From an uncultured virus (IMG/VR IMGVR_UViG_3300048549_001676) (taxonomy: Duplodnaviria; Heunggongvirae; Uroviricota; Caudoviricetes), in IMG/VR virus record IMGVR_UViG_3300048549_001676: DNA of 64,000 bases, one strand, 5' to 3'. Below the pieces are notes generated by a model, which searched no databases, had not been told where the DNA came from, and was given only the letters and a program-made list of their open reading frames with translations. Below are positions 6,579 to 63,823 of the stretch, piece after piece. Position numbers and translations under genes: made by a program. Positions within the stretch are counted from its first letter, which is position 1. Every line of letters begins with the position of its first letter.

Positions 6579-7640
6579 CTAAAGTTTTTTATTTTTATGA
6601 TTGCAACATCCACCACCACAACATTTTCTTGAAATATTGTTCTGCCATTTCCAAACTGATGTTACCATTTCTTTTAATCCAAGTTCTGCTTCCCAATTTA
6701 ATAATTCTTTTGCATAACTCGGATCAGCATATATTGCCTCAACATCACCTTTTCTGCGATTTCCGTAGTGTGTATTTACTTTAATGTTGTTTTCTTTTTC
6801 AAATGCTTCTAATACTTCTTTTACAGAATATCCTGTACCAGTTCCTAAATTTACAGGTTCTGCTTTTAAATTCTTTTTTGACGAAATCTTTAATGCCTTG
6901 ACGTGTGCTTTTGCCAAATCCACTACATGAATATAATCACGAACACAAGTTCCATCTTTTGTATTATAGTCTGTTCCAAATACAGTTAATAATTCTCGCT
7001 GTCCACTTGCAGTTTGAGCAACATAAGGTAACAAGTTATCAGGAGTACCATTTGGAAGTTCTCCGATATAAGCAGTTTCATGTGCTCCTATTGGATTAAA
7101 ATAACGAAGCAATATACTATTAAAGTCGTGTTCATTATGAAAATCTTTTATCATTTGTTCACATATTTGCTTTGTTCTTCCGTAAACACTTTCCGCAGGT
7201 TTTTGTAAAGTTTGCTCTGTGACTGGTAAATCATCTGCTTGACCATAAACTGTACAACTACTACTAAAAACAAGATTATCTGCTTTATAGTATTTCATTG
7301 CTTTAAGCAAATTATTTGTACCAGTTACATTGTTATCATAATATTTGCTTGGTTCTTTCATACTTTCACCGACACTTTTACAAGCAGCGAAATGAATTAC
7401 ACCAACAGTATCTAATTGATAATATCCAAGCAACGATTCTAATTTAAAATAATCACGAATATCAAGATTTATAAATTCTATCTTTTTGCCAGTTATTTTT
7501 TCAATTCCATCAATTACTTTTTCCGAAGAATTTGACAAATTATCAACAACCACAACATTATAGTTTGCATTTAATAATTCTACAACGGTATGACTACCGA
7601 TGTATCCAAGACCACCCGTTACAATTACCGAATTTTTCAC
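6579..7640 (-). CDS. galE: UDP-glucose 4-epimerase
   Basis: TGGLGYIGSHT, HFAACKSVGES, YGRTK, LRYFNPIGAH, DGTCVRDYIHVVDLA. Confidence 0.95.
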   Translation of the reverse strand: MKNSVIVTGGLGYIGSHTVVELLNANYNVVVVDNLSNSSEKVIDGIEKITGKKIEFINLDIRDYFKLESLLGYYQLDTVGVIHFAACKSVGESMKEPSKYYDNNVTGTNNLLKAMKYYKADNLVFSSSCTVYGQADDLPVTEQTLQKPAESVYGRTKQICEQMIKDFHNEHDFNSILLRYFNPIGAHETAYIGELPNGTPDNLLPYVAQTASGQRELLTVFGTDYNTKDGTCVRDYIHVVDLAKAHVKALKISSKKNLKAEPVNLGTGTGYSVKEVLEAFEKENNIKVNTHYGNRRKGDVEAIYADPSYAKELLNWEAELGLKEMVTSVWKWQNNISRKCCGGGCCNHKNKKL

Positions 7641-8971
7641 TTTATCATCCCGGCTGCAAGAGTTTCGTTTGTTTGTGTATCAATTAAAACGAAACTACCA
7701 TTTGCACGATTGCTTTCAAAATCATCAAAGTTGATTGGTTTACTTGTTTTTATGCTGATTCTAGCAATATCATTTAAACCAATTTTTAATGTTTGATCTT
7801 CTGCTTTACTAAAAGTATTAACATCTAAAGTATAAACTTTTTTTGTAATCATTGCAGTTACCTCGTTGCTTCCATGCTTTAAAATGTATTTTTTTCGTGG
7901 AAGCATTTGATCTTCAGACGTCCAACAAATCATTGCATCAAAGTTCTGAGATACTTTTGGAAGATTATCCACACGTGCAATCATATCTCCTCTACCTGCA
8001 TCTATATCATCTTCAAGTGTCATTATTACACTTGCAGGTGTGCAGGCCTCGGTAAGTTCGTCTTTGTATAAACGCATATCTTTTATTCGTGTTTCAAATC
8101 CACTCGGAAGAATACTTACTTTTTGTCCTACCTCAAAACGACCACTTACTATTTTACCAGCATAACCACGAAAGTCATGCCACTCATCAGAATGAGGACG
8201 AATAACAGTTTGAATATCAAATCGTGCGTCCACCAAATTGTTGTCTGAGAAAATCTCAATGTTCTCAAGCATACCAAGCAAATGACCACCTTTGTACCAT
8301 TTGGTTTTTTGACTTTTGGTTGTAACATTGTCTCCTTTTAATGCTGATATAGGAATAAAACGAATATCATTACAACGAAGTTTTGCACTAAATTGCTTTA
8401 ATTGCTGACGAATTTTGTTAAACTTTGCTTCATCATAATCAATCAAGTCCATTTTATTTACCGCATAAATAACATGAGGTATCTTTAAAAGACTTGCAAT
8501 AAAAGAGTGTCTACGTGTTTGCTCTGAAATTCCTTTTCGTGCATCCACTAAAATAATTGCGACATTGCTTTTGCTTGCACCTGTAATCATGTTACGAGTA
8601 TATTGTACATGACCAGGTGTATCTGAAATAATAAACTTGCGATTCGCAGTGTTGAAATAACGATATGCTACATCAATTGTAATTCCTTGTTCACGTTCAC
8701 TTTTAAGACCATCTGTAAGATACGCAAGATTTACATCTTCTTCACCTTTCTTTTTACTTGTAACACGAACTGCTTCGTATTGATCTTTCATTACACTTTT
8801 TGTATCATAAAGCAAACGTCCAATTAATGTACTTTTACCATCATCTACACTACCCGCAGTTGAAAGACGAAGAAGTTCATTGTTCTGTAACTTATCAACA
8901 TTCTTTTTTGGTTCTTCTTTTGTGTTGTCCACAGGTTTCTTGTTTTGATTTTTTTTGTTGTTCTTGTCCAT
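7637..8971 (-). CDS. cysN: sulfate adenylyltransferase subunit 1 (GTPase)
   Basis: GSVDDGKSTLIGRLLYD, EREQGITIDVAYRYF, DTPGH, NKMD; start set at MDKNN just after cysD stop; no fused APS kinase. Confidence 0.95.
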   Translation of the reverse strand: MDKNNKKNQNKKPVDNTKEEPKKNVDKLQNNELLRLSTAGSVDDGKSTLIGRLLYDTKSVMKDQYEAVRVTSKKKGEEDVNLAYLTDGLKSEREQGITIDVAYRYFNTANRKFIISDTPGHVQYTRNMITGASKSNVAIILVDARKGISEQTRRHSFIASLLKIPHVIYAVNKMDLIDYDEAKFNKIRQQLKQFSAKLRCNDIRFIPISALKGDNVTTKSQKTKWYKGGHLLGMLENIEIFSDNNLVDARFDIQTVIRPHSDEWHDFRGYAGKIVSGRFEVGQKVSILPSGFETRIKDMRLYKDELTEACTPASVIMTLEDDIDAGRGDMIARVDNLPKVSQNFDAMICWTSEDQMLPRKKYILKHGSNEVTAMITKKVYTLDVNTFSKAEDQTLKIGLNDIARISIKTSKPINFDDFESNRANGSFVLIDTQTNETLAAGMIK

Positions 8972-8972
8972 C

Positions 8973-9878
8973 TTAGAAATATCCTTGTTGCTTACGATCT
9001 TCCATACTTGTTTCGGATTTTTTATCGTCACCACGGGTTCCTCGTTCAGTTGTGGTTGCACTTGCTACTTCTGCGATAATATCATCAATTGTTTCTGCTT
9101 TACTTTCACACGCACCTGTACAAGTTACATCTCCGACTGAACGAAAACGAACCACTTTATCTACAAGTTTTTCTCCGTCTTTTAATTTAACATAATCAGC
9201 ATGACCATATAAAACTCCGTCACGTTCATAACATTTTCTTTTATGTGAAAAGTATAATGAAGGTAAAGGAATATTTTCTTGTTTAATGTAAGTCCAAACA
9301 TCAAGTTCTGTCCAATTGCTTATTGGAAATACTCTAAAGTGTTCACCTTGATTTTTTCTTCCGTTAAATGCGTCCCAAATTTCTGGTCGTTGATTTTTTG
9401 GGTCCCATTGACCAAAATCATCACGATGAGAAAAAAATCGTTCTTTTGCTCTTGCTTTTTCTTCATCTCGTCTTGCACCACCAATACAAGCATCAAACTT
9501 ATGATGTTCTATTGCATCAAGAAGAACAGGTATTTGAAGTTCATTTCGTGTTGCACCAATTCCAGTTTCATCGTGAACCAATCCTTCTTTGATCGCATCT
9601 TCAACTTTGCGATCAAACAATGTGACATTATATTGCTTTAATATTTCGTCACGGAATTTCATGACTTCTGGAAAGTTGTGACCTGTGTCAACGTGCAACG
9701 CAACAAAAGGTGAGTTTGCAGGATAAAATGCTTTTGCGATGAGGTGAAGGCAAACTAAACTATCTTTACCACCACTGAAAAGCAATCCAGTAGTTGAAAA
9801 TTGAGCACTTGCTTCTCGTAATACATGAATGCTTTCTGCTTCAAGTTCTTCTAAGTGTGTTAAATTACATTTTTTCAT
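8973..9878 (-). CDS. cysD: sulfate adenylyltransferase subunit 2
   Basis: LEELEAESIH, FSGGKDS, GGARRDEEKARAKER, WDPKNQRPE, SMEDRKQQGYF. Confidence 0.96.
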   Translation of the reverse strand: MKKCNLTHLEELEAESIHVLREASAQFSTTGLLFSGGKDSLVCLHLIAKAFYPANSPFVALHVDTGHNFPEVMKFRDEILKQYNVTLFDRKVEDAIKEGLVHDETGIGATRNELQIPVLLDAIEHHKFDACIGGARRDEEKARAKERFFSHRDDFGQWDPKNQRPEIWDAFNGRKNQGEHFRVFPISNWTELDVWTYIKQENIPLPSLYFSHKRKCYERDGVLYGHADYVKLKDGEKLVDKVVRFRSVGDVTCTGACESKAETIDDIIAEVASATTTERGTRGDDKKSETSMEDRKQQGYF

Positions 9879-9893
9879 CTCTTCATATAAATA

Positions 9894-10475
9894 TTAAATT
9901 GGTTGATTTATTATAAAATTAAATAATATATTCGCACAATATTTTATAGTATTATTTGTAGTATCTATAATCAAATCAGGATCACTTGGTTGCTCAAACA
10001 TATTCAATGATTTATTCATGTTTTTCAAATTATTTTTGTATAATCCTTTGACATCACGTTTTTTAACTTCATCATGTGATGCTTTAATATAAATTAAACG
10101 AAAACGTTCTCCAATTATTTTTTGTGCTTGAATACGACTTTCTTCAGTTGGTGATATAAAACAATTAATTGTACTTGTTCCATTTTCGACAAACATTTTT
10201 GAAATCTCAGCACTTCTACGAATATTTTCTATACGAGATTTCACACTTAAATCCAAATCTGAATTTATGGTGCTACGCATATTATCTCCATCTAAACATT
10301 TTACCCAATATTGTTCTTCAAGTAACATTTTTTCTACGACCTTTGCAAGTGTGCTTTTACCACTTCCACTATTACCAACCAACCAAAACGCATATGCTTT
10401 TCTGCCACTTGCATTTTCAAAGTAATCAGCCGACAAATAGTCTGTCGGAAAAAATTGGTCACCATCATTTCCCAT
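9894..10475 (-). CDS. cysC: adenylyl-sulfate (APS) kinase
   Basis: WLVGNSGSGKSTLA, LDGDNMR, RIENIRR, FISP, RDVKGLYK. Confidence 0.9.
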   Translation of the reverse strand: MGNDGDQFFPTDYLSADYFENASGRKAYAFWLVGNSGSGKSTLAKVVEKMLLEEQYWVKCLDGDNMRSTINSDLDLSVKSRIENIRRSAEISKMFVENGTSTINCFISPTEESRIQAQKIIGERFRLIYIKASHDEVKKRDVKGLYKNNLKNMNKSLNMFEQPSDPDLIIDTTNNTIKYCANILFNFIINQPI

Positions 10476-10498
10476 ATTATAATAAGTATATAAATTTG

Positions 10499-10615
10499 CT
10501 ATTTTTTAAATATCTTCGTATAAATTCTATATAGAAATTTTCGGAATATTACACATACTCCTGTTGTTGTCAAAGCGAATTTAATCAACAACACTTTTAT
10601 ACAAATCGGACACAT
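10499..10615 (-). CDS. small MCPIC-start hydrophobic/basic peptide (38 aa)
   Basis: Manual translation MCPICIKVLLIKFALTTTGVCVIFRKFLYRIYTKIFKK fills the intergenic gap. Confidence 0.4.
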   Translation of the reverse strand: MCPICIKVLLIKFALTTTGVCVIFRKFLYRIYTKIFKK

Positions 10616-10625
10616 AATAAATTAA

Positions 10626-11225
10626 TTATGAATCAAGTTTCTTCATTTTCTTTTCTAACTCAGAAACTCTCTTTTTAATATTACTTTGTGATTTTTCTAA
10701 CTTCTTTTCAAGATGCAATAATCTTTCTTTGCGATATGCATCTTTTTTCATCAAACTATCAACATTGTCTTGTTGTTCTGCAATTTTAATACTTTCAGCA
10801 ACTGCTCTTGCATACTTTAAATTTTTGATGTCGTTTCGCATTTTTCTTAAAGTTTCTGCAAACTCTTTTGTAAATCCGGAATCTCTTTCAATGTATTCTG
10901 CAAGTTTGTTTTTTTGAAATTCAAAATGGTCGTTTAATAAATTAGTTGTTTTAGAAACTTCCTCTATGCTTTTTATTATACTCACATCATTTGCACTATT
11001 TTTTTGATTTGCATCTGTATATAATTTTGCTTGTGTTTTGATTTGCTCTTGAAGTAACGTAAGTGTCGTGTTGATATCAGCAATTTTTAAATGTGCTTCC
11101 ATATCATTCTCGTTATCACGTCTCATATAATCTTGAAGTTTATCAAGTTGCCATGTCAACTCTGATTCAATAATTCTTAAATTCTTGTTCAAGTCATCAA
11201 GTTCTCTTTTTACATCATCTTCCAT
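10626..11225 (-). CDS. coiled-coil hypothetical protein
   Basis: 199 aa, heptad-rich. Confidence 0.75.
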   Translation of the reverse strand: MEDDVKRELDDLNKNLRIIESELTWQLDKLQDYMRRDNENDMEAHLKIADINTTLTLLQEQIKTQAKLYTDANQKNSANDVSIIKSIEEVSKTTNLLNDHFEFQKNKLAEYIERDSGFTKEFAETLRKMRNDIKNLKYARAVAESIKIAEQQDNVDSLMKKDAYRKERLLHLEKKLEKSQSNIKKRVSELEKKMKKLDS

Positions 11226-11227
11226 TT

Positions 11228-12478
11228 TTATTTCCCCATTTTTTCATTTTCAAATTTTTTATCCCAATCAATATTTCCGTTTTCATCAATATAAGGTGGA
11301 GTCGGAATATCAACATCATTCTTATTAAACGCATAAATTACTCCCACAATAGATGCAATCAAAACAACTCCCAATACAATAAACATTGTCTTGTTATTTT
11401 TCTTTGGTTTATTTTTTGGAGGTTTTGGTGTTGGTGTAGGAGTTTTGGTTGGCGTTGGTGTAGGAGTCTCCGTTGGTGTAGGAGTCGGTGTCGGTGTCGG
11501 TGTTAGTGAAGGTGTTGGTGTAGGTGTCGGAGTAGGTGTTGGAACTGGTTGTTCTTCCCCACCACCACCGATAAGTTTCTCTACATCAATAACTCCATAA
11601 CCCCACGAATTGTCACGGCCGACTTCACCTTTGTCTTTGGTGTATTTAAGAAGATGCTCACGAATTTGTTCAACTGTTTTACAGTCGTTTTTACCTGTGT
11701 CTGCTTCTTGTTTTTTGTGCTTTGCGAGCATCAGTGCAACGACACCAGCAATAAACGGACACGCCATTGAAGTTCCACTTAAACTAGCATATCCATTGTT
11801 AAGATATGTACTATAAATGTTTACACCAGGAGCAGCCCATTCTACTTTTTCTCCTTTAGAAGAAAATCTTGCTACATTTCCGTATTTGTCGTAGGCTGCA
11901 ATTGCGATTGTTTCATCAAAAGCAGCCGGATAATTTACTCCTCCGTCCCCTGAGTTACCCGCCGCACATACCACTGGAATATTCATGTCATATAATTTCT
12001 TTATACGTGAATGCATTGCAGATGACGGTGCAGAACCACCTAAACTCATACTTACCAAGTCAGGTTTCATTTCAATCGCATAATCCAATGCCTCTGTTAA
12101 TCCTTGATAACTTCCACTTCCATTTTTGTTTAATGCTTTCACAGAAATGCATTTTGCATTCGGAGCAACTCCAACCATTCCAGTTTCATTGTCTTTCGCA
12201 CAAATAATACCTGTACAATGTAACTGATGACCATTTTCATCTATAATTGGTTCGTTTGGTATGCAATTTTTTCCTTCAATCGCATTATCACCTATATCAG
12301 GATGTACAGGATGTCCTGTATCAATTACCATAACAGTAATTCCGTCACCTTTTGTAATGCTCCATGTTTTTGGTACATTCAATTGTCGCAATCCCCAATC
12401 TATTCTTTGACTGAGTGTACCAAGTTCCTCGTTTACCTCTACTGGAGGTAATTTTATTTCAGTATCATCCATCTTCAT
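11228..12478 (-). CDS. subtilisin-like S8 serine protease with PT linker and C-terminal TM anchor
   Basis: VIDTG (Asp), NGHQLHCTG (His), [14 protein letters not shown] (Ser); (PT)n; [19 protein letters not shown]. Confidence 0.92.
11420..11548 (-). repeat. (Pro-Thr)n coding low-complexity repeat
   Basis: [44 protein letters not shown]. Confidence 0.9.
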
Positions 12479-12489
12479 TTCTCGTTGAA

Positions 12490-14916
12490 TTATTTAATTC
12501 CAACAAACCTAGTGATTGAGAATCCAGTTTCATCATCTGCTATCTCTAAGGTTGGATTTACCATAAATTTTGTAGGCATAGTAAGTTTATCATCATACTC
12601 TACTTCTAATGAATATGGCATACTTTTAATATTCTCCATAATATAATCAAATAATTCATCAATGGTATGATATTTTTCTAAATCTACTTGGTAATTCATT
12701 TCATCTGTCGGATCGACATACTTCACGGATTTTATTTCATTTTCCGCAACATGAACTTCCACTAAACTTGTGTATTCTTCTACACAATAACATTCCCATT
12801 TAAAGTTAAATTTGTATTCTGTTATACCAAGTTTTTTCCATGATTCTTGTACTTTTTGAACTTCTTTAAGTTTTGCTTCATCATATTGCTTCTCAGAATC
12901 CTGTGGTTTTTCATAAAAGTTGCCAGTCGTTGGAGTTGGTGTTCTTTCATAAAAGTTGCCAGTCGTTGGAGTTGGTGTTCTTTCATAAAAGTTGCCAGTC
13001 GTTGGAGTTGGTGTTCTTTCATAAAAGTTACCAGTCGTTGGAGTTGGTGTTCTTTCATAAAAGTTGCCAGTCGTTGGAGTTGGTGTTGGAGTTTCGCATG
13101 GTCTACCTGTGTATTTGATATTGTCTCCACTAAGATTTCCAAGAACTCCATTACTCGGAGAAACTGTTCCTTCTCTTCGTGTCATAGCAAGTGGATAAAA
13201 CGATACAAGTTTTTCAAAATCTTCAACCTCAGTCCATCCGTATGACCAGTGTGTTCTATTATATGGCATAACAATATACAATGTTCTTTCGGATTTTTTG
13301 TATTCTATTCTTGGTGTTCCATTTTGCTGACCGGAACTTGCAACAAAACCATAATGTGTGTAGTTACCTCCGGATGTATAAACATAATGTACTTTGCAAG
13401 CACCTGCCCATTCTCCTAACAACGTAAGTATAACTTTTCCAGTTTTGCCAGCTGCAACTCTTACACTAAACGGAACATCTAAAGGTTCATTAGTTGGAGT
13501 TGGTGTAGGAGTAGGTGTTGGACTTGGAATACTTGTTTTTACGATTGCACCCTTTGGATGATCGTTCAACAATGGTGTTTCCAAAATCAAAGGAAAGAAT
13601 CGTGCAACAATTCCCACTTCTTCAATTTCTGTATCAGGACTTATTATTACTCTTGATCCAACTGGAAATGATTCTAACATCATTTCAAGACTCATATCAA
13701 GAACCAAAGCAACATATCCTTTTGGAGCTTCAACTGCAAGTGTTGAAGAATAAATCTGAGTTGTTGGTGTTGGTGTTGTTTGATATATACACTCTCCGTA
13801 GGTTACGTTTGGTAAGTCAATTATTTCTCCGTTCTCATTTTCTTGCATCCATGCACCTAACCAAGGCCAGTTTCCGTTTGCATTGCTTGGAGTCATAGTT
13901 GCTAAAATTGTGTGCGAATCTTCATCAGATGGAGATGTAATAACCCATGTATCACGTTCACCGGAATAATGAATATAAGTTAAATCCTTTTTCCAATATG
14001 CAATTCCTTGATGTGTATTTTTTGCAATTGTATAGGTTCCTGAAAATTCGTTTCCGTCTCCAAAATCAATACACAACTCATTTGGTATCTCTACATCAGG
14101 ACTTTCTATTTCAAGACCCTCCAATACCTTTGCGTGTCTGAGTTCAAGACTCAAATTTGTTGTATCAGGACGACCATCGATATGTCTAAATACATTTTTG
14201 CCTCCGTCATCTACCATAAATCCTACCAAAATAAAATCTTTGTCGGTAAGATATACATTTTTAATGTTAAGGTCTAATGTTGGTGCAACTGAACCACGAA
14301 TTGCAGAAGTATTGGAAGTAGTACCAAGAACCTCTAAAATCTGATCCGTTTCTGCACTCACTTTATATACTCTCATTGACTGAGATAAAATATCAACATT
14401 GGTATCAGATGGTTCGATTGCAACATTTACATCAACATCATAAAATCCTGTTACATTGGGTTTTAATCCACGGTGGCCACTTGTGCTTGTGAAGGTCCAA
14501 TCCTCCATTTCCATAGCATAATTTCCGTCAAACGAAAGACGTCTCCATGTATTGTTAACACGGTTTATTGTACCTGAATTTAAATAAACTTTTGATTGAA
14601 CAACCAAGTCCTCATGTGATAAATCTTCAGCATGATCTTCAACTACTCCTTCCAATGCTTTAACACGTTCTACCATACGACCTTGCTTGGTATCAAGTTT
14701 TTTCTCTAAACCTGCAATTCTTTCTTTTTTGTTGTCGTTGGCTGCGTCTAAGTTAGCAATTTGGTTTTTGTATTGTTTAACTTTTTGTTCTAATTCAGAA
14801 ACACGACTCGTCACACGACCTTGTTTGTTATCAAGTTTTTTTGATAATGTGTCGATTTCGTTCTTGAGTTTGTTTATCTCTTTTAATAATTCTTCGTTTG
14901 TCATAATATGCTCCAA
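12490..14916 (-). CDS. multidomain putative virion/surface protein (coiled coil, C1q/TNF-like beta domain, PT linkers, C-terminal DUF6174-like)
   Basis: N-terminal heptads; LKPNVTGFYDVDVNV; TPTPT linkers; C-terminal W..LGITEY...CYC...TIDELFD...V.YD...DDE pattern. Confidence 0.7.
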   Translation of the reverse strand: MEHIMTNEELLKEINKLKNEIDTLSKKLDNKQGRVTSRVSELEQKVKQYKNQIANLDAANDNKKERIAGLEKKLDTKQGRMVERVKALEGVVEDHAEDLSHEDLVVQSKVYLNSGTINRVNNTWRRLSFDGNYAMEMEDWTFTSTSGHRGLKPNVTGFYDVDVNVAIEPSDTNVDILSQSMRVYKVSAETDQILEVLGTTSNTSAIRGSVAPTLDLNIKNVYLTDKDFILVGFMVDDGGKNVFRHIDGRPDTTNLSLELRHAKVLEGLEIESPDVEIPNELCIDFGDGNEFSGTYTIAKNTHQGIAYWKKDLTYIHYSGERDTWVITSPSDEDSHTILATMTPSNANGNWPWLGAWMQENENGEIIDLPNVTYGECIYQTTPTPTTQIYSSTLAVEAPKGYVALVLDMSLEMMLESFPVGSRVIISPDTEIEEVGIVARFFPLILETPLLNDHPKGAIVKTSIPSPTPTPTPTPTNEPLDVPFSVRVAAGKTGKVILTLLGEWAGACKVHYVYTSGGNYTHYGFVASSGQQNGTPRIEYKKSERTLYIVMPYNRTHWSYGWTEVEDFEKLVSFYPLAMTRREGTVSPSNGVLGNLSGDNIKYTGRPCETPTPTPTTGNFYERTPTPTTGNFYERTPTPTTGNFYERTPTPTTGNFYERTPTPTTGNFYEKPQDSEKQYDEAKLKEVQKVQESWKKLGITEYKFNFKWECYCVEEYTSLVEVHVAENEIKSVKYVDPTDEMNYQVDLEKYHTIDELFDYIMENIKSMPYSLEVEYDDKLTMPTKFMVNPTLEIADDETGFSITRFVGIK
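12908..13087 (-). repeat. 5 x 36-bp in-frame tandem repeat (TPTPTTGNFYER)
   Basis: Near-identical units TTCATAAAAGTTGCCAGTCGTTGGAGTTGGTGTTCT with no spacers. Confidence 0.92.
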
Positions 14917-14930
14917 TTTAAAATAATAGT

Positions 14931-14959
14931 GGGAGGGTGCGATGCACCCTCCCTTTTTT
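14931..14959. terminator. GC-rich hairpin / terminator between fibre genes
   Basis: GGGAGGGTGC-GAT-GCACCCTCCC, with a T-run on the plus side and an AT-rich tail on the minus side. Confidence 0.6.
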
Positions 14960-14961
14960 AA

Positions 14962-20056: not shown

Positions 20057-20500
20057 TTAAATTTTTTCTATATATTCCAAGTTTGGTAGTTCTGTTAATG
20101 TTCTTTTAAACAAAGAACCTTTTATTTGATTTATATCAAAAGTGTTTTCAATAATTCTGACCGACTTGTTTCGATTTTGAAAAAGTATTTTCACAGAATC
20201 ATTTTGTAATTTAGTTTCAAATAATATTTCTCGTTGACCTTGCTTTCCTATATATTCAATTTTAAAATAAGGTCTATTATATGTTGTATTAATATTATCT
20301 CCGGCGATATCTTTTAATTGAAAGTTATTCATATTTAAAAAACATCCTTCTTCTAAACAAGAAATATAAAACGAATCTACCAAACTACGACTATCCTCAT
20401 CTGTTGATTTACTGACAGAAGTATAATTTAAAACTACTCTTCTATCATGAGAAAAGTTGTCGTATGCACGAATATGCTTAATTGTTTGATTGATCACCAT
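20057..20500 (-). CDS. hypothetical protein
   Basis: 147-aa ORF with upstream ATATTTAT motif. Confidence 0.65.
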
Positions 20501-20517
20501 CTATTATAAATATGTTT

Positions 20518-55609: not shown

Positions 55610-55653
55610 TTTTTATCTCCATATTTGTTGTTATATTATAAATATAATATAAA

Positions 55654-57074: not shown

Positions 57075-57075
57075 A

Positions 57076-57786: not shown

Positions 57787-58484
57787 CTATATGTATAATC
57801 CATTATGTGTACATCATCATTCATGCACTTTTCTATTATATATGAAAAGTTACTACAACCTTTTACAAAATATTTGCTATTTGCCATATAACACAAATCA
57901 AGGTCAGTTTCTTCATTAGAAATTAAATTCAATTCAAATCCTCTTTGGTTTATTCTTTCTTCAAAATTTTTTAAAAAAGACAGATTTTGATTATATGATA
58001 ATTTGTTAAAAAAATGCTTTCCATTTGTTTCATTTGCTCCATAATGAAGTGCAGTTACAATCGTTATTTTGTTAAGTGTATCAGGATTTGAATTTAGAAT
58101 ATTATCGTTTTCAAAAAGTCTGTCCACACTTTTTTTTAATCTTTTGACTCTAAGTTTTTCGTATTTACTTTTCTGAAAAATATCTCCAAGTCGGAGATGG
58201 ATTACCAATTCATTCTCTTCAGGAATTTCGCATTTGTATTCTTGTGTGTGTTCTTGTACAATTTTTTTTAGCAACTCAAAATCTGGTTCCGAATCGCCAT
58301 GTAGTTGTGTAAGATACTTGCACAATATTGTGTTCTTAAACTCTTCATTATTTTTGACAACTTCTCTATCCGATTCCCAACGACCACCACCGTCCTTGAA
58401 AATCAAATCACCAAAACGATAAAATTTATTTTCCTTCAAAACCTTTAGTTGACTTTCAAAATCAAGTTTTTCCATAAAACGCAT
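57783..58484 (-). CDS. GT11/fucosyltransferase-like fold protein
   Basis: VIHLRLGD, D.DLCYM..S..FV...SNFS. Confidence 0.6.
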   Translation of the reverse strand: MRFMEKLDFESQLKVLKENKFYRFGDLIFKDGGGRWESDREVVKNNEEFKNTILCKYLTQLHGDSEPDFELLKKIVQEHTQEYKCEIPEENELVIHLRLGDIFQKSKYEKLRVKRLKKSVDRLFENDNILNSNPDTLNKITIVTALHYGANETNGKHFFNKLSYNQNLSFLKNFEERINQRGFELNLISNEETDLDLCYMANSKYFVKGCSNFSYIIEKCMNDDVHIMDYTYR

Positions 58485-59121
58485 CCCTTAAATCTAAACC
58501 CTTACTTTTTGTAAAATACTCAAACATTAATGCTGGCATTAAATCTTCCATTGCTTGTGTAAAAAAATCATTCGGTAGTTTTTCTTTGGCATTCTCTGAT
58601 ATGTATTTTGAAAATTCTTTTGATACACCATATAATTTACCATGATAAAATCTTAATGTATGCCTTCTTTTAATAATGTTGGTATTAACCTTGATTCCCT
58701 TGACCCTCGCCCATTCATTTAATTGCCATCTTTTCACGTGTTTGTTGCGAAGTCCAACATAATACCCTTCGTGTGGCAAATCAAAGTAGTCCGATACTTT
58801 ATCAAGTGGATGTTCCTTCGCGTGTATTGTATCTGCCGTTATAGTTGAATCTATTTTAAACAGATATGAAAAATCAAAGTTATCGTTAATAAATTTAAAC
58901 ATTTCAAGCATTTTAGTCGGCAAGTTCATATAAGATTCGTCACCTCTTATTTGTAATACATCTCCAATCAGTTCCGTATCTTCAAACCCACCATGTACCT
59001 CAATAACTTTGTATGCTTCGTTTGATTTCAATTTTGCATATAAATCTGTTTGTTTTAGTTTCTCCAAATAAACACTATCTCGTTTACAGGTATTAATGCA
59101 GATTATTTTTTCGTACTTCAT
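58462..59121 (-). CDS. GT31-like galactosyltransferase
   Basis: ESYMNLPTK, YLFKIDS, G..Y.VS, MEDL; paralog of the C-terminal domain of 50111-51562. Confidence 0.7.
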   Translation of the reverse strand: MKYEKIICINTCKRDSVYLEKLKQTDLYAKLKSNEAYKVIEVHGGFEDTELIGDVLQIRGDESYMNLPTKMLEMFKFINDNFDFSYLFKIDSTITADTIHAKEHPLDKVSDYFDLPHEGYYVGLRNKHVKRWQLNEWARVKGIKVNTNIIKRRHTLRFYHGKLYGVSKEFSKYISENAKEKLPNDFFTQAMEDLMPALMFEYFTKSKGLDLRDAFYGKT

Positions 59122-59122
59122 T

Positions 59123-59884
59123 TTATTTTTCAATTTTTAAATTATCTTTTTGTAAACCATTCAATGACTGAAAAATTTTACAATAATTATCAATTTGCAT
59201 TCTTGGATAATATTTTCTATATATTTGCTGAAATTGACCCTGATCAGTCTTATCTTTTAATAAACGTGTTGATATAATATCTGAAAAAATTTCTTTAAAA
59301 AAATCAACTTTGCAAATAAACAAACCAGAATTTAAATACATAAACGGAGTTTGATTTCTTATAATATTTTGGTGTTCTGGCCAACGCCAGTATATTGGAT
59401 TAGCCGATCCAGTGAGATGTCTTCCGGCCGGAAACACCTTATTCTCTGCATTAAATAACCAATCACACTCAAACTCATTTTCAAACCTTTCAACGATACG
59501 ATTTGGGTGTTCTGTAAAAAACACATCAACATCCCAACCAACGACATATTTTGTTGTAATTTGATTTAAATTTTCATGCAACAAATGTGGTTTTATCGTC
59601 CTGATTTCACCGTGCGAAGGTGGATCGAAGTTTTTTCCGATATTCAAATAACGCAAGTTAAATCTTTGAAGATTTTCGTCTAATGTACATATAAACTTGG
59701 ATTCGTCACCCCATTTTGCAAAACACAAAGTTACATCTTCTCTTAATTTTTCCGATGAATCCCAATTCCATGTGTTCATTGTTTCACCAGCAAACAAATT
59801 GTAACCGATCTTACATTTTTTAAACCCACCATTTAAGTGAAATGCAATTGGATATGAATTCGTTATATTGTTTTTTATTCTCAT
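59123..59884 (-). CDS. PLOD/LH3-type GT-A glycosyltransferase, circularly permuted
   Basis: WDVDV, LFNAE..FP, YLNSGLFI, TDQ, IDNYCKIFQSLNG; HLNG at the N-terminus; start set at MRIKNN. Confidence 0.7.
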   Translation of the reverse strand: MRIKNNITNSYPIAFHLNGGFKKCKIGYNLFAGETMNTWNWDSSEKLREDVTLCFAKWGDESKFICTLDENLQRFNLRYLNIGKNFDPPSHGEIRTIKPHLLHENLNQITTKYVVGWDVDVFFTEHPNRIVERFENEFECDWLFNAENKVFPAGRHLTGSANPIYWRWPEHQNIIRNQTPFMYLNSGLFICKVDFFKEIFSDIISTRLLKDKTDQGQFQQIYRKYYPRMQIDNYCKIFQSLNGLQKDNLKIEK

Positions 59885-59894
59885 GTTTCTTTCT

Positions 59895-60764
59895 TTATAA
59901 AATTGCCGAATATACAAAATGGTTTTCTAGTTTACTATTATTACACAAAACGAAATTCGTTACATTGCTTGATCCATGTATTAAATAATCAGTTTTACTA
60001 AGTAGGTATGCTTCTATCAAGATGTCCTCTCCAAGTTTATACTTCATATTCTGTAAACTATTATCATGATGCATTTCTCCAACATTAGTTCGTGTAGAAT
60101 CATATGTTATTATTTTATCTTCGTATTTGTTTTTACATTGTTGTATCACATCTTCAGAGTCTGAGCAAAGAAATATTGAGGCATCTTTGTTATCATTCAG
60201 ATATTTGTCAATTTCCTCAAAAAACAATTCATACGGCACTCCATTTTGTAAAGCAATTTTTTGTTTTTTCTTTTCATCCACATTATCTGAATTAAGTGGG
60301 TGGTATGTTCCTGTCAGTATACCACCTCCACGTAAATGCACTCCAAGAATTTTATTGTCTTTGAAATTATTTTTTTCAAAATCATTTATTTTTTCTATAA
60401 TATGTTTTTTTAACTTAATATATTTTTCTATTATCTTTTGCACGACTTCACGACTTTTTGGTTGGTCTAAATAACCAGTCTCAGTAGGTGTGATTAAATT
60501 TCCTTTACGACGTGCGTGTTTTTTTACACGACCGATTTCTTTATCATTTGCATTTGGTGTATACAATGGTTCAAAATAGTATGAGAATACATCGTCTCCG
60601 TGTTTAACACTTTTATATGGTGATTTCTTCCATCTAGGTTTAATTTTATATCCATTTAAATCACCTACATAGAAATGATCAATCAATTCATTTACTACTG
60701 AAAACATACCACGATCTGCTGATATTTTGTCGTTTATGCTAAATCTATACACTTCGTTTTTCAC
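59895..60764 (-). CDS. NodZ/GT23-like fucosyltransferase
   Basis: GMFS, YYFEP, LGVHLRG, IFLCSD, GEDILIEAYLLSKTD...SNV. Confidence 0.78.
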   Translation of the reverse strand: MKNEVYRFSINDKISADRGMFSVVNELIDHFYVGDLNGYKIKPRWKKSPYKSVKHGDDVFSYYFEPLYTPNANDKEIGRVKKHARRKGNLITPTETGYLDQPKSREVVQKIIEKYIKLKKHIIEKINDFEKNNFKDNKILGVHLRGGGILTGTYHPLNSDNVDEKKKQKIALQNGVPYELFFEEIDKYLNDNKDASIFLCSDSEDVIQQCKNKYEDKIITYDSTRTNVGEMHHDNSLQNMKYKLGEDILIEAYLLSKTDYLIHGSSNVTNFVLCNNSKLENHFVYSAIL

Positions 60765-61450
60765 GATGGATCTGCCTCTCGATATTTTGTAAATTCACCA
60801 CGGTTAATCTCATTTTTAATTAGTCCCATTTGTTCCTTCCACGCAGTTCCTATATCAATGACCTTCACCCCACGACACGAAACCACGTTATAGTTAACTA
60901 ATTTCATTGACCTCTTTAGTTGAATTAACCACCACTCCGGATCTTGGTCCCCTGGAATTGGGTGTTTATCAAGAATATTTGCAAGAACCGAAGTTTGAAA
61001 TAAACTTGGTGGTAGATATGCTCTATTCTTAATTTTTCGTTTTCCTAGTTTATATGGATGTGCGACACACTGAAGAATATTATCTCTTGTATCGTGTTTT
61101 ATTTTTTTAATATATTCTGCAATGCAGATTTCTCCAGTTTCAAACAACCAATCATCTTCAACATTGAAAAAATACTCTCCAGTTGGTTTGCTTAAAACCC
61201 AAGAATATGCGGTTGGAAAATTACCACCACTCGGTCCGATGTTATAGTGAACCTCACCGAAGTGGTCTCGGGCAATCTCAAGTTCTTCGTTTATCTTATT
61301 GTCCGACTCGGTTGGAACAGGATCAATGTTTATATACAAAATTCCCTCGGTTTTCAAATCAACATCAACTAAAACCTTATTCAACGAAGTATATGTTTCG
61401 TTAAGCAATTCGGGTCTCACACACGCAGTCGTTGTAAATTCAAGTTTCAT
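60761..61450 (-). CDS. putative GT-A glycosyltransferase
   Basis: TTTACVRPELL..T, INIDP, YFFNVEDDWLF, DIG. Confidence 0.6.
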   Translation of the reverse strand: MKLEFTTTACVRPELLNETYTSLNKVLVDVDLKTEGILYINIDPVPTESDNKINEELEIARDHFGEVHYNIGPSGGNFPTAYSWVLSKPTGEYFFNVEDDWLFETGEICIAEYIKKIKHDTRDNILQCVAHPYKLGKRKIKNRAYLPPSLFQTSVLANILDKHPIPGDQDPEWWLIQLKRSMKLVNYNVVSCRGVKVIDIGTAWKEQMGLIKNEINRGEFTKYREADPS

Positions 61451-61456
61451 AATTTC

Positions 61457-62035
61457 TTATTCTCCGAATTTGTATCCGAAATACTCAATGTCTTTTGCGT
61501 ATTTTTCCGCAACGATTTGACGAGTTTCATCGTCATAGTATTCGGTGTAGTGTTTGTGCTTGGTTTTGTTTTTATGTGGAAGTTCTATTTGAGAAATTCC
61601 TATTTTATCACAGATTGTATTAAAATCCTCTTGCAGGTTTTCAAATCTTCCGATGAAACTCAATTCATCAACTCTACCAAGACAATGCTCCATGACATCT
61701 ACTTGAGTCCACAAGTGCACCCGTTCCCTCCTTCGGTACATGGATGCTAAATTTTGTTTCTTACAATACTCCACAAATGTCATAGGTTCTTGGTGTTTTA
61801 TCCACGGCCGTGGGCTATGTCCTGGGCGGGGACGGGACCATTTATATTCTGATACCCATCGATCCCACGGATTTCTTACAAATGTAAACTTATAATAATC
61901 CGCATACAAATTTACATCATGCGTTTCCGTATGAACTTGGGGTCCTGTATATCCAGATTGGAAAAATTGGCCAATACTTGAACCTGCACTTTTTGGAATA
62001 TGAACAAAAATAAATTTATGTTTATGACTTATCAT
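61457..62035 (-). CDS. sulfotransferase (Sulfotransfer_2/CHST-like)
   Basis: [41 protein letters not shown]. Confidence 0.9.
   Translation of the reverse strand: MISHKHKFIFVHIPKSAGSSIGQFFQSGYTGPQVHTETHDVNLYADYYKFTFVRNPWDRWVSEYKWSRPRPGHSPRPWIKHQEPMTFVEYCKKQNLASMYRRRERVHLWTQVDVMEHCLGRVDELSFIGRFENLQEDFNTICDKIGISQIELPHKNKTKHKHYTEYYDDETRQIVAEKYAKDIEYFGYKFGE
61479..61584. repeat. 106-bp direct repeat, copy 1 (sulfotransferase 3' end)
   Basis: Identical to 62717-62822 by eye. Confidence 0.85.
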
Positions 62036-62037: not shown

Positions 62038-62691
62038 TTATTCTCCAAATTCATAATTAAAATACTCAATATCTTTTGCATATTTTTCCGCAACGATTTG
62101 TGGTGTTTTGGTTATAGAGTCCATGATAATTGGATAAAGTATTCCCTTACTTTTTAATATAGCGCCAACAAGATGATCACCCTTAGTAATAAACTTATGA
62201 ACATTTCGTTGATGCGGAATCATATCTGTGTGATACATTTCCACCTTATCGTCACCACTAAAAATATAATACTCAGTTGTGTCGTTAAGCATTAAGTGCT
62301 CATATTTCCATTGCTTAATTTTCTTTGCCTCTGTTTCCCACCTCTTTTCATCGGGAACTATATCTCGGTGAATGGAATATTGTGGTGCAAATGCAATTGC
62401 CTTTATTACATTAACATCATTAGCAAATTGTATGGCAGTATATGCCCCCATGCTATTGCCTATTGTTATGACCTCTTGATTGATAAGTTTTGATTTTATT
62501 TTATCAACATCGATAGTATTATACCAACTCACTTCTCTGTCCGCAACGAACATTACATTGAAATCAGATTGTTTTAAAAGTCCTATAAATTCCTTTTTGA
62601 AACCATGTACACCAAACCCATGCAATATGCCAGTAAAAGAAACAATTGTTTTACTCACTCCGTTGTCAATAAATTCTATATCAGTATTCAT
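62038..62691 (-). CDS. alpha/beta-hydrolase-fold protein with a sulfotransferase-derived C-terminal tail
   Basis: VSFTG, SWY, IGNSMGAY (nucleophile elbow), FAPQ; ends [20 protein letters not shown]. Confidence 0.75.
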   Translation of the reverse strand: MNTDIEFIDNGVSKTIVSFTGILHGFGVHGFKKEFIGLLKQSDFNVMFVADREVSWYNTIDVDKIKSKLINQEVITIGNSMGAYTAIQFANDVNVIKAIAFAPQYSIHRDIVPDEKRWETEAKKIKQWKYEHLMLNDTTEYYIFSGDDKVEMYHTDMIPHQRNVHKFITKGDHLVGAILKSKGILYPIIMDSITKTPQIVAEKYAKDIEYFNYEFGE

Positions 62692-62694
62692 TTC

Positions 62695-63297
62695 TCACTC
62701 TCCAAATTCATACCCAAAATACTCAATGTCTTTTGCGTATTTTTCCGCAACGATTTGACGAGTTTCATCGTCATAGTATTCGGTGTAGTGTTTGTGCTTG
62801 GTTTTGTTTTTATGTGGAAGTTTCTGTTGAGGGATTCCAAGTTTGTCACAGATTATATTGAAGTCTTCTTGAAGGTTCTCGAATCTTCCGATGAAATCTA
62901 AAAGTAAATCTCCATCTTCATTTATTAAATGAGCATACTGAGAACAACAATGCCAACTTCTCTCATTCCATTTTTTTGGATTTTCCAAATCCCACGAACT
63001 GATTCTTTTAACAAATTCAGCAAAACTACATTTCCAAGCATATCTTGGTTTCCAACCCCCAAACTTCCACGAAGAAACTGCTCTATCAAAGGGATTTCTT
63101 ACAAATGTAAATTTATATGATTCTAACCATGTATTTTCTTGAATTTTATTTTTCAATTTTTGACCTGAAAAACTTTCATATCCTTGATTAAGTATTGGTT
63201 TAATTTCTAAATTAGAATTATGCAACAAAAAATTCTTTATTGTATGTCCAGCAGTTTTTGGTATTCTTACAAAAATTGAATTTTGATTAGTTTCCAT
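62695..63297 (-). CDS. sulfotransferase (Sulfotransfer_2/CHST-like)
   Basis: [35 protein letters not shown]; start set at METNQ. Confidence 0.9.
62717..62822. repeat. 106-bp direct repeat, copy 2
   Basis: Identical to 61479-61584 by eye. Confidence 0.85.
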
Positions 63298-63823
63298 GAC
63301 ACAACTCCCGTTTCCAATAATCATAACACTTGTTTGGTTGCATACCAGCATACCTATGCTTCAAGTAAAACTTGCAAGCAGGATACACCCACTTAAGTGT
63401 ATCCGACAACTCAATCGTATCATTATCATTGTCATCCATCATCTGACGTATAAATATTGCCGAGGATGTATTTTGAATTGTTTTAGTGAAGTCCCAAGCA
63501 AGTCGTTCGTACTTGGTTTTTGATCCGTTGTATATTGTGCTTAGTTTCTTTCCAAGTGGTAACACATCATAAAACAATGTTCCGTTTCTTTCATCTTTTA
63601 CAATCGTATACGGAGTTCCGTTTATCACATTCACTACTCCACCATAAACTTTTATTTGATTTTCGGGTGGAAAAAAATTCTTAAAATTACTTTTTAGATC
63701 CCCCATCAGTGTTTCAAACGAATATTCACCCACATTATCAAGTAACATTGAATTTATATTTAAGGTACAATCTTTTAATACGGAAGATACGACTGGCTGT
63801 GATCCTAAAGTAACATAAATCAC
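63287..63823 (-). CDS. DUF1796-like protein (divergent)
   Basis: YVTLGS...YSFE...KYERL..DF...IFIR pattern; GTG start with AAGGAG and GTGA overlap. Confidence 0.5.

Follow-up and report, generated by a model that had tools for sequence, protein, structure and literature searches.

The fibril clusters of the Megavirinae (Moumouvirus australiensis ma457-ma468, Mimivirus R135-L143, Tupanvirus, Cotonvirus), which count 12-21 genes and belong to viruses of amoebae, combine the synthesis of nucleoside diphosphate (NDP) sugars with many soluble glycosyltransferases (GTs), and those of Moumouvirus and Cotonvirus hold a fused sulfate adenylyltransferase (SAT)/adenosine 5'-phosphosulfate (APS) kinase together with one sulfotransferase (PMC10117803). 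In jumbo cyanophages, clusters of paralogous GTs from several families accompany NDP-sugar enzymes; they are sporadic and polymorphic between relatives and were called "capsular polysaccharide modification systems" (PMC7824862). The genes cysC, cysD and cysN have been found on viral contigs and filed under cysteine synthesis, as genes of assimilatory sulfate reduction (bioRxiv 10.1101/2021.01.05.425418), and putative capsid glycosylation is mentioned for phage Maravista (PMC11256854). Here we describe a stretch of 64,000 nucleotides (the window, in what follows) from an uncultured virus (IMG/VR record IMGVR_UViG_3300048549_001676), in which an island of co-oriented accessory genes, spanning position 6579 to at least position 63859, encodes the supply of 3'-phosphoadenosine 5'-phosphosulfate (PAPS) together with sulfotransferases and many GTs. 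We read it, with a probability of about one half, as the cytoplasmic glycan factory of a large marine tailed phage, the acceptors of which would be proteins of the phage. Glycosylation of virions by phage GTs occurs in mycobacteriophages, and phage P-SSM2 has about two dozen lipopolysaccharide (LPS) genes. In bacteria, NodP/NodQ-NodH and the loci of sulfated capsules tie a PAPS supply of the CysD/CysN/CysC type to a sulfotransferase, as does the window, but these loci for sulfated polysaccharides and Nod factors are cellular and include membrane export or lipid-carrier steps.

The window has in common with the Megavirinae clusters not only the association of NDP-sugar synthesis with many soluble GTs but also that of sulfate activation with a sulfotransferase, as well as the presence of a pyruvyltransferase and of a 4,6-dehydratase (PMC10117803). 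It differs from them in that it belongs to a tailed phage and has separate CysD, CysN and CysC proteins, five sulfotransferases and about 25 GTs, whereas the Megavirinae have a single fused SAT/APS kinase and no more than one sulfotransferase; in addition, a papain-like protein lies beside their sulfotransferase, while the window has only a 190-amino-acid (aa) open reading frame (ORF) at 63287-63859 with a weak match to DUF1796 (papain-like), below the Pfam cut-off (PMC10117803). Glycosylated fibrils are a stated premise for the Megavirinae, whose sulfation is itself unproven ("experimental validation is needed"; PMC10117803), whereas the window is known from its genes alone; among these genes, donor synthesis and soluble GTs, whose association is one of the marks of autonomous virion glycosylation of the Megavirinae or chlorovirus type, are both present. 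With the jumbo cyanophages the window shares paralogous GT clusters of several families and NDP-sugar enzymes, but the word "sulfotransferase" has no occurrence in the accessible text on these phages and no PAPS supply is described there (PMC7824862), and the CysN clade of the window is placed within no bacterial group. The same word is also absent from the accessible text on viral assimilatory genes (bioRxiv 10.1101/2021.01.05.425418); unlike those genes, the cys genes of the window come without cysH, with five sulfotransferases and with galE in their unit, which points to PAPS as a sulfation donor.

Single sulfotransferase genes (phrog_3347) of the same family and fold as those of the window are carried by Ralstonia phage RSL1, Stenotrophomonas phage DLP_6, Roseobacter phage SIO1 (gp5.1), Synechococcus phage S-T4 and Prochlorococcus phage P-SSM7, in no case with cysN on the same record. 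Only 6 of 50,697 deposited phage records matched a window sulfotransferase, and none had a convincing cysN, the full-length matches being two contigs named "Acinetobacter phage MD-2021a" and a Salmonella whole-genome shotgun record. We searched IMG/VR with an alignment of the five sulfotransferases and found at least 525 encoding stretches, from which 73 loci (31-56% identity) were kept. There was no cysD or cysN within 10 kb at any of these 73 loci and a cysC-like gene at one; conversely, none of 14 IMG/VR cysN loci had a sulfotransferase of the window type. Five sulfotransferase-bearing source records (G001-G005) were taken whole for gene comparison, and these too were devoid of cysD and cysN. 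In the Creative Commons-licensed literature of PubMed Central and bioRxiv we found no description of an island of such scale combining PAPS supply, sulfotransferases and GTs. While single phage sulfotransferases, the GT clusters of jumbo cyanophages and the sulfate kinase with sulfotransferase of Moumouvirus are already known, the combination and its scale are new as far as these searches go.

Gene calling gave 90 ORFs of at least 100 aa in the window. We kept for the scans the 69 that tile the minus strand, and set aside 21 others (19 plus-strand ORFs antisense within kept ones and two nested minus-strand ORFs, 12822-13151 and 17871-18176); Pfam was run on all 69 and NCBIfam on 17 of them. 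All 69 lie on the minus strand, which holds for every ORF cited below. The donor-synthesis genes that the initial annotation had named were borne out by family scans and by relatives in the Protein Data Bank (PDB). Sulfate activation is encoded by cysN (7637-9061; large subunit of SAT; TIGR02034, 535.6 bits for a cut-off of 336.1), cysD (8973-9878; small subunit; NF003587, 431.6 bits for a cut-off of 195) and cysC (9894-10475; APS kinase; PF01583, 126 bits for a cut-off of 21.1), the last falling 0.4 bits short of the 138.7-bit cut-off of TIGR00455 with 138.3 bits. The true start of cysN is probably downstream of the called one, since its relatives have 441-449 aa. Next to these genes lies galE, for a UDP-glucose 4-epimerase (6579-7640; TIGR01179, 401.7 bits for a cut-off of 262.3). 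The other donor genes are metK (30076-31230; S-adenosylmethionine (SAM) synthetase; TIGR01034, 572.6 bits, above cut-off), rmlB (35413-36387; dTDP-glucose 4,6-dehydratase; TIGR01181, 432.3 bits, above the equivalog cut-off), rmlA (39744-40610; glucose-1-phosphate thymidylyltransferase; TIGR01207, 368.8 bits for a cut-off of 360.65) and an ORF at 37038-37922 which resembles a rhamnose synthase of the NRS/ER (3,5-epimerase/4-reductase) type. This last ORF remained far under the RmlD equivalog (63.4 bits for a cut-off of 224), and its best solved relatives were 4qqr, a "3,5-epimerase/4-reductase" (E 7.8e-39) which we take to be the Arabidopsis NRS/ER, and 7jid, a "UDP-L-Rhamnose Synthase" which is presumably Mimivirus L780. 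As no RmlC was found among the window ORFs, a bifunctional NRS/ER enzyme is the simplest reading, and the NRS/ER-like label is supported by the comparison of sequences.

The genes cysC, cysD, cysN and galE form a single unit, bounded by a promoter-containing gap (10476-10625) and by a terminator-like hairpin of the minus strand located 3' of galE (6547-6515; 15-pair stem followed by a T-run), which is the probable end of the unit. No member of the CysH, CysI or CysJ families was found among the 69 ORFs, and the sole protein with a PAPS_reduct domain is CysD itself. Because CysH is missing, PAPS would be a sulfation donor rather than an intermediate of cysteine synthesis, and because galE shares the unit of the cys genes, sulfate activation seems tied to sugar metabolism. 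The cys genes thus fit the feeding of sulfotransferases better than they fit cysteine synthesis. Judging from family membership, CysD/CysN and CysC would convert sulfate to PAPS, MetK would supply SAM, GalE would supply UDP-galactose, and RmlA, RmlB and the bifunctional NRS/ER-type enzyme would yield NDP-L-rhamnose without any RmlC. We note in passing that several of the metK relatives that are 95-97% identical to the window gene encode 464 aa, of which 80 make up a C-terminal extension that the window gene lacks.

The five sulfotransferases announced by the initial annotation were all recovered above the 22-bit cut-off of Sulfotransfer_2 (PF03567): the ORFs at 28918-29580 (71 bits), 31234-31884 (45.3 bits), 61457-62035 (77.1 bits) and 62695-63351 (79.4 bits), and the N-terminal half of the ORF at 50111-51607, which is fused to a GT31-like C-terminal half. 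In the alignment, the motif RNPxxRxxS is kept in all five domains and the lysine of PK(T/S)xG in four, a serine replacing it at 50111-51607; we take these to be the motifs of PAPS binding known as 3'-PB and 5'-PSB, respectively. We also predicted the structure of the protein encoded at 62695-63351, with only moderate confidence (predicted local distance difference test, pLDDT, 62.5; predicted template modelling score, pTM, 0.64). Compared with viral proteins, this model gave sulfotransferase-family matches, 19 of them at E <= 0.001, which included the proteins of RSL1, SIO1 (gp5.1), S-T4 and P-SSM7 as well as pithovirus-like and Megaviridae environmental sequences and Moumouvirus australiensis (rank 13, E 1e-4). 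Compared with the PDB it gave no match at E <= 0.001, and the 40 weaker matches listed were all sulfotransferases. We concluded from motifs and model that the five genes encode predicted PAPS-dependent sulfotransferases.

Other enzymes could decorate a glycan further. An FkbM-family methyltransferase (48457-49113; also matched in NCBIfam), a polysaccharide pyruvyl transferase (PS_pyruv_trans, 24366-25634; 69 bits for a cut-off of 25.3) and a WcbI-like polysaccharide-modifying enzyme (46571-47542; 50.7 bits) are all above their Pfam cut-offs, as the first description would have it. Its SGNH and alpha/beta hydrolases are less secure: the matches exist, but both the SGNH-like ORF (54983-55609) and the alpha/beta-hydrolase-like ORF (62038-62691) score below cut-off. 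The last 23 residues of the latter match the C-termini of sulfotransferases. In fact the genes ending at 61457, 62038 and 62695, two sulfotransferases and the hydrolase-like ORF, have nearly the same 23 terminal residues and the same downstream ribosome-binding region, and a 207-base repeat (61452-61658 and 62690-62896) shows 89% identity. These shared ends of three adjacent genes suggest recombination between gene ends.

A GT family match (E <= 0.01) was found in 25 ORFs, 21 of them at or above the curated Pfam cut-off and four below it (36384-37016, 43034-43963, 44962-45732 and 47539-48456). The "about 30 GT-like genes" claimed initially are therefore a slight overcount, the 25 ORFs including the fusions, while the diversity of families is confirmed: GT2/Glyco_transf_7C, Nucleotid_trans, NodZ/FUT8, GT11, GT17, GT25, Galactosyl_T, Gly_transf_sug and GT_PLOD, four of which presumably correspond to the CAZy families GT77, GT23, GT31 and GT32. 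GT2 domains occur, with or without the 7C domain, in a GT-A enzyme at 21736-22473 (GT2 and Glyco_transf_7C; 47.3 bits for a cut-off of 23), at the N-terminus of a 607-aa protein whose remainder has no family (22470-24293; 59 bits), beside DUF6734 at 33721-35394 (GT2/7C), at 41424-43037 (GT2), at 56340-57110 (GT2/7C) and, below cut-off, in a 210-aa ORF at 36384-37016 and in the ORF at 44962-45732. The GT77-type (Nucleotid_trans) is represented by the C-terminal part of a 524-aa protein (25636-27210; 34.7 bits) and by the ORFs at 40595-41449 and 51555-52298 (59 bits). NodZ/FUT8-like (GT23-type) enzymes are encoded at 28014-28928 (36.3 bits for a cut-off of 28.3), 43034-43963 (FUT8-like; 27.5 bits for a cut-off of 27.6), 47539-48456 (NodZ-like by Pfam, below cut-off, its paralogy seen by BLAST), 49113-50114 (27.6 bits, equal to the cut-off) and 59895-60764 (NodZ-like). 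There are also a GT17 (37974-38756; 127.5 bits), a fucosyltransferase-type GT11 (44024-44869; 75.2 bits), a GT32-type DXD transferase (57076-57786), a GT31-type enzyme (58462-59133), PLOD-type GTs at 45729-46574 and 59123-59917, and three GT25 paralogues (53630-54298, 54295-54990 and 55654-56346).

All-versus-all BLAST showed two fusions, the sulfotransferase-GT31-like protein already mentioned and a protein with a GT25-type N-terminal and a GT77-type C-terminal half (52359-53633), and grouped paralogues as four GT25, five NodZ-like, five sulfotransferases and two PLOD-type. Between two other GT genes, at 44899-44965 on the minus strand, about 27 codons form a stop-terminated remnant which begins with NPF.(Y/F)F(D/E), as the four GT25 paralogues do; it looks like the trace of a cassette replacement inside the island. 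Four ORFs of the GT block were without any family match, among them those at 27198-27998 (266 aa), 57783-58484 (233 aa) and 60761-61450 (229 aa, with a homologue 58% identical at an IMG/VR locus, L221), none of which was recognised by Pfam or, for the first two, by PHROG. A 338-aa ORF (38753-39769) gave only weak hints of a GT (phrog_2170, E 2.6e-4).

As to what becomes of the glycans, the initial annotation had noted that no flippase, Wzy, ABC exporter or initiating phosphoglycosyltransferase was visible and that the GTs looked soluble. Both observations hold: there were no Pfam matches to Wzx, Wzy, ABC-transporter or phosphoglycosyltransferase families among the 69 ORFs, and the 48 ORFs of 21736-63859 were all free of membrane segments (Kyte-Doolittle threshold of 1.6 over 19 residues) and of signal-peptide-like N-termini. 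The families required of a Wzx/Wzy- or ABC-dependent surface polysaccharide locus are thus not found among these ORFs. Nevertheless, the same phage and the same enzymes might make a lipid-linked or secreted polysaccharide of the host cell (O-antigen, capsule or exopolysaccharide), assembled on the host undecaprenyl carrier and exported by the host, with a role in blocking superinfection or in sparing the progeny from being lost on debris. This is the main rival of a protein target and a strong one, though we give it the lesser probability of the two. It is in its favour that GT2, GT11, GT25, the pyruvyl transferase, WcbI and FkbM are named after bacterial polysaccharide or LPS pathways in the Pfam descriptions, and that the expansion of paralogues, the GT25 remnant and the mosaic gene ends fit a fast-diversifying surface-antigen locus; the lack of enrichment of acceptor-like proteins near viral sulfotransferases, given below, is a further point. 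Against it count 57 kb deprived of any initiating phosphoglycosyltransferase, flippase, polymerase, chain-length regulator or ABC exporter, the absence of membrane proteins from 21736 onward, and the presence of a fibre and of proteins with Thr-Pro (TP) repeats embedded in the island. In addition, Glycos_transf_1, the commonest family in bacterial polysaccharide loci, was seen only as a single match of E 0.025, and the Wzx and Wzy of a host are specific for its own repeat units.

The proteins which could serve as acceptors on the phage side are encoded in the interval that separates the PAPS operon from the GT block. The largest is a 1690-aa tail-fibre-like protein (14962-20034) with collagen repeats, Laminin_G_3, a Peptidase_S74 intramolecular chaperone and a C-terminal coiled coil; it matches 39 PHROG families, and 14 of the 25 matches listed are in the tail category. 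An 808-aa protein (12490-14916) consists of an N-terminal coiled coil, TP repeats, five ERTPTPTTGNFY repeats and a C-terminal DUF6174. A subtilase of family S8 (11228-12478; phrog_3677, E 2.3e-72) has a (Pro-Thr)n linker of 40 residues (about residues 311-352) followed by one C-terminal membrane helix, and a 199-aa coiled-coil protein (10626-11225) resembles, in its C-terminal part, the C-terminal coiled coil of the fibre (29% over 85 aa, E 3e-6). According to all-versus-all BLAST, this coiled-coil segment is common to the fibre, the 808-aa and the 199-aa proteins. Thr-Pro linkers are typical sites of O-glycosylation, and we regard the subtilase and the 808-aa protein as candidate glycan acceptors.

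The mechanism we propose would then be the following: about 25 soluble GTs of at least nine Pfam GT families would build one or several complex glycans, the five sulfotransferases, the FkbM methyltransferase, the pyruvyl transferase and the WcbI-like enzyme would decorate them, and the collagen-repeat fibre and the two proteins with Thr-Pro linkers would be the acceptors, so that the fibres of progeny virions would be coated with deoxy-sugar glycans that are both sulfated and methylated. We give even chances to acceptors of this kind, namely phage proteins from the very block of genes that encodes the enzymes. It is the leading reading by analogy, as the fibre, the (PT)n-linker subtilase and the TP-repeat protein lie inside the island and as the palette of enzymes parallels the fibril clusters of the Megavirinae; that the GT block has no membrane or export protein also speaks for it, as do the coiled-coil segment shared by the fibre, the 808-aa and the 199-aa proteins and an upstream motif, described below, that is common to the fibre unit and to glycan genes.

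Several observations weigh against a protein target. GTs of O-antigen and capsule pathways usually also lack membrane helices, so that solubility is no guide to the target, and the phage might rely on its host for a lipid carrier, a flippase or an ABC exporter. Thr/Ser/Pro-rich ORFs were found within 10 kb of 12 of the 73 viral sulfotransferase loci, compared with 13 of 80 viral metK controls, and so without enrichment, and over the same distance four-fold TP repeats occurred at one of the 73 loci and eight-fold collagen repeats at none; large Thr-rich proteins are present elsewhere in the whole records G001, G002 and G005. Adjacency is a weak argument because QueF-like, LOG-like, dNMP kinase and PDDEXK_15 genes are interspersed in the same region. 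No lysyl hydroxylase accompanies the PLOD-type GTs (Pfam, 69 ORFs), and no clear polypeptide-initiating GT emerged from sequence searches. The GT2+7C enzymes were considered as initiators resembling polypeptide GalNAc-transferases and set aside, as their sequence matches in the PDB were weak (beta-1,4-galactosyltransferase, E 1.7e-4; streptococcal GalT1, E 0.0026; none for a third query). Twenty-five GTs exceed the need of any single known glycan. Finally, the clusters of jumbo cyanophages, which also assemble GTs of several families and NDP-sugar genes, have been read as modifying the surface polysaccharide of the host (PMC7824862). Of the virion glycosylation suggested in the initial annotation, the soluble GTs and the missing export genes stand, whereas the step from these to a virion target is weaker than was implied.

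A more specific version of the protein-target reading is that the glycan of the fibre mimics the sulfated algal polysaccharides of seawater (ulvan-, fucoidan- or carrageenan-like), being rich in rhamnose and galactose, methylated and pyruvylated. Bacteria that harvest polysaccharides would then capture the virion through their glycan-binding surface proteins, the glycan acting as a bait for adsorption, and the donors encoded by the phage would free glycan synthesis from the sulfur and sugar state of the host. The donor set, the soluble enzymes and the acceptor-like proteins associated with the fibre would fit this scenario, which we nevertheless hold to be improbable. The nearest cellular relatives of CysN, which belong to the Bacteroidota and to the Verrucomicrobiota/PVC (Planctomycetes-Verrucomicrobia-Chlamydiae) group, bear on the same question, although the CysN tree names no donor.

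Part of the GTs could modify the DNA of the phage instead, for instance as glycosylated hydroxymethyl-pyrimidines. The island does contain genes that belong to nucleotide metabolism rather than to glycans: a QueF-like preQ1 synthase (29628-30146; NCBIfam 82.8 bits for a cut-off of 86.9), which probably serves nucleotide or DNA metabolism, a LOG-like Rossmann protein (31884-32648) and a dNMP kinase (32691-33257), the last two assigned from scans that included Pfam, PHROG and NCBIfam. Together they hint that the phage modifies nucleotides or DNA, with 7-deazaguanine or otherwise, and phage GTs that place multi-sugar glycans on DNA have been described (10.1101/2023.12.21.572611; PMC13326640). Against this, no family of cytosine or uracil hydroxymethylases, TET/JBP-type dioxygenases or DNA methyltransferases is present in the 69 ORFs, and no sulfated, pyruvylated or methylated DNA glycan was found in the literature surveyed. 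The 25 GTs and five sulfotransferases, moreover, far exceed the few enzymes that DNA-glycosylation systems need. DNA modification is unlikely for most island genes, at most a few enzymes could be involved, and we give this reading as a whole very little credence.

The organisation of the genes is that of a prokaryotic, operon-like segment. The window has a G+C content of about 32% and a steadily negative GC skew; coding sequence takes up 95% of it and 98% of 6579-63859; at 34 of the 68 junctions the neighbouring genes overlap, in 15 cases by 4 bases. A Shine-Dalgarno core (GGAG, GAGG or AGGA, 4-17 bases upstream) precedes 16 of the 69 starts, for an expectation of 5.3 (standard deviation 2.2, maximum 12, in 1000 random draws). 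These features bear on the idea that the stretch comes from a giant virus of eukaryotes (Nucleocytoviricota), which the palette of GT11, 17, 23, 25, 31, 32, 77-type and PLOD-type enzymes, the collagen repeats, the NRS/ER-type enzyme and the giant-virus proteins matched by the sulfotransferase model might suggest. The Shine-Dalgarno enrichment, the 4-base overlaps and the single coding strand over 64 kb, together with a nuclease like D14 of phage T5 and with relatives that carry rIIA/rIIB and a phage terminase, make such an origin extremely improbable.

The initial annotation spoke of a phage-like segment, and here the phage-type genes, the gene organisation and the hallmark-bearing relatives agree, so that we are highly confident of a phage with a self-supplied set of genes for sulfated glycans. 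It must be said on the other side that neither Pfam nor PHROG found a terminase, portal or capsid gene in the 64-kb window; phage identity rests for this reason on gene content and on relatives. Exact 40-mers taken from the two ends of the window had no match in IMG/VR, nor did the one from the high end in a metagenome collection, and a metagenome scan with MetK, dominated by a universal motif, yielded nothing above 65% identity. As to content, the PDDEXK_15 (T5 D14-like) nuclease (21170-21751; Pfam and PHROG), which is not a glycan gene, has relatives in 363 deposited phage records, the dNMP kinase in 162 and the subtilase (phrog_3677) in 86.

As to relatives, the five whole records share several genes with the window. 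Homologues of the subtilase are found in G002 (68% identity) and G003 (59%), of the nuclease in G003 (68%), of a UvdE-like endonuclease in G002, G004 and G005 (52-53%) and of the dNMP kinase in G004 and G005 (42%), while G001 shares the QueF-like protein (66%), RmlB (60%) and the ORF at 38753-39769 (52%). The capsid gene of G001 (222 kb, CheckV 100%) is of the T4 Gp23 type (E 1.6e-89). In G002 and G003 we scanned for hallmarks 121 of the 214 addressable ORFs, namely those of about 130 aa or more, and found in each a terminase large subunit and PhoH, and in G002 also rIIA/rIIB, a DNA ligase, a clamp loader, a sigma factor and a tail fibre. The terminase of G002 has distant relatives only among cultured phages (at most 27% identity). 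Sulfotransferase genes of phrog_3347, five in G002 and eight in G003, are clustered next to the subtilase. The records G001-G003 thus appear, by comparison of their sequences, to be relatives of the window at the level of a family and not the same phage. In the sulfotransferase-rich G003, which has neither cysD nor cysN, a 275-aa P-loop kinase (L257:3130-3957; phrog_10255, E 8e-50) adjoins the subtilase, and phrog_10255 weakly matches the CysC of the window. On another IMG/VR contig, of 45,612 bases, a 19.5-kb locus (L205) has 13 protein types of the window at 23-43% identity, including the GT77-type, GT11, FkbM, three GT25 and sulfotransferases, and seems to be a second, smaller island of like kind on a viral contig.

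The missing hallmark genes could also mean that the stretch is not viral and that the glycan island belongs to some uncultured bacterium of low GC, possibly accompanied by the remnant of a prophage. In IMG/VR, scans guided by the proteins CysN and MetK and by those of the last and the MYG1-like ORFs did not yield any close relative, and the loci L081 and L082 have only the MYG1-like gene in common with the window, at 35% identity; megablast of bases 1-25000 against deposited phages gave no match either. The relatives of MetK and CysN come from metagenomes: MetK has about 30 metagenomic relative clusters at 73-97% identity, the next best relative being at 68% (a metagenome-assembled genome of the Planctomycetes), and CysN has 30 at 75-96%, two of which also list NCBI as a source, the next best being at 57-62% with Bacteroidota for those that are named. 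The contigs that carry members of these clusters reach 403,125 bases, none being larger among the members listed, and those with members of the CysN clusters closest in sequence (representatives at 87-95% identity to the CysN of the window) measure 190-403 kb. These sizes suggest a source genome of more than 200 kb, although contigs of 200-400 kb could also be bacterial. Against a bacterial origin stand the absence of any cellular housekeeping family in the 69 ORFs beyond the donor-synthesis genes, the presence of a phage-type fibre, of PDDEXK_15 and of the dNMP kinase, the fact that the best relatives of several genes lie on terminase-bearing contigs, one of which also has rIIA/rIIB, the limit of 403 kb just mentioned, and a scan of GTDB species genomes in which no CysN exceeded 63% identity (62 loci). 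All this leaves a bacterial chromosome a most unlikely source.

In a CysN tree of 39 rows, the window groups with 11 relatives in a single clade (support 100/100) with a stem of 0.79 changes per column, apart from the Bacteroidota and PVC bacteria and with a relative position that the tree does not settle. Given this long-stemmed clade and its unsettled placement, the CysN family would be old within the viral lineage, and no donor phylum can be named. The population itself is marine: near-identical DNA occurs in ten runs besides the possible source, each of which contains half or more of the words sampled from 6579-16578 and is labelled seawater or marine. The contigs of one independent run leave none of the 30 bins of bases 1-20000 uncovered, and most show 0-3 differences. 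Within the fibre region (14793-18635), contigs of an independent marine run skip or join back (15736 to 17524; 17551 to 18323), which probably reflects variants driven by repeats or effects of assembly in the collagen region. Two metatranscriptome runs gave short identical or near-identical contigs in the fibre and 808-aa genes, and in the case of X15 such contigs fell in cysN and in the gene of the subtilase as well. Since DNA may be present in libraries of this kind and there was no silent-stretch control, these contigs are no proof of transcription, and the parts without cover are not informative.

The island may be controlled by signals of its own. All ten copies of the motif ATATTTATA are on the coding strand, for 3.0 expected, and the opposite strand has none (none of 100 shuffles reached ten). 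Seven copies lie in gaps (9886-9894, 20505-20513, 24298-24306, 28001-28009, 29596-29604, 37926-37934 and 55637-55645) and end 3-12 bases 5' of a start codon; downstream of them are the unit that ends with the fibre and several glycan genes. Three others are inside genes (47517, 57209 and 63449). The motif is therefore a candidate phage-specific promoter with very short leaders, and its position, as at 20505-20513 on the minus strand upstream of the ORF 20057-20500 and of the fibre gene, hints at a regulation common to the fibre unit and the glycan genes. In the five related records G001-G005 it shows no strand bias, and for that reason it provides no tie between them and the window. Directly 3' of the fibre gene, on the minus strand, there is a second terminator-like hairpin (14931-14953; 10 pairs, 8 of them G-C). 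At the high end a partial ORF (63820-63999) leaves the window, so the island may extend past it.

The low end (2-6304) encodes a UvdE-like endonuclease cut by the edge, DoxX, a rhomboid protein, VanZ, a MYG1-like protein, a glycine-zipper protein with a lipoprotein-like start and a tRNA-Met (6229-6304), and has the appearance of an accessory set directed at the host membrane. UvdE and DoxX are likewise neighbours in the phage contig G002. For the 808-aa protein, the ESM Atlas gave no usable feature match and a poor model (pLDDT 0.53). In the Atlas clusters of DUF6174 this domain is fused to the protease-inhibitor domains TIMP or Kazal, and in the window its gene adjoins that of the subtilase; owing to these fusions and to this neighbour, DUF6174 may be a partner or inhibitor of the protease.

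The island is a compact source of predicted soluble sulfotransferases and GTs, including sulfotransferase-GT and GT-GT fusions, and the population recurs in seawater metagenomes often enough for a search of viral fractions, half or more of the 10-kb probe being present in each of the ten non-source runs. If our reading is true, the glycosylation of proteins by viral enzymes extends from the giant viruses of eukaryotes to tailed phages, on an enzymatic scale larger than in any virus that we found described in the literature surveyed. The viral cysC, cysD and cysN genes met in ocean surveys would then be a supply for sulfation and not for sulfur assimilation, and the sulfated glycans would introduce a new variable in the adsorption of phages, in their stickiness to marine gels and particles and in their recognition by grazers.

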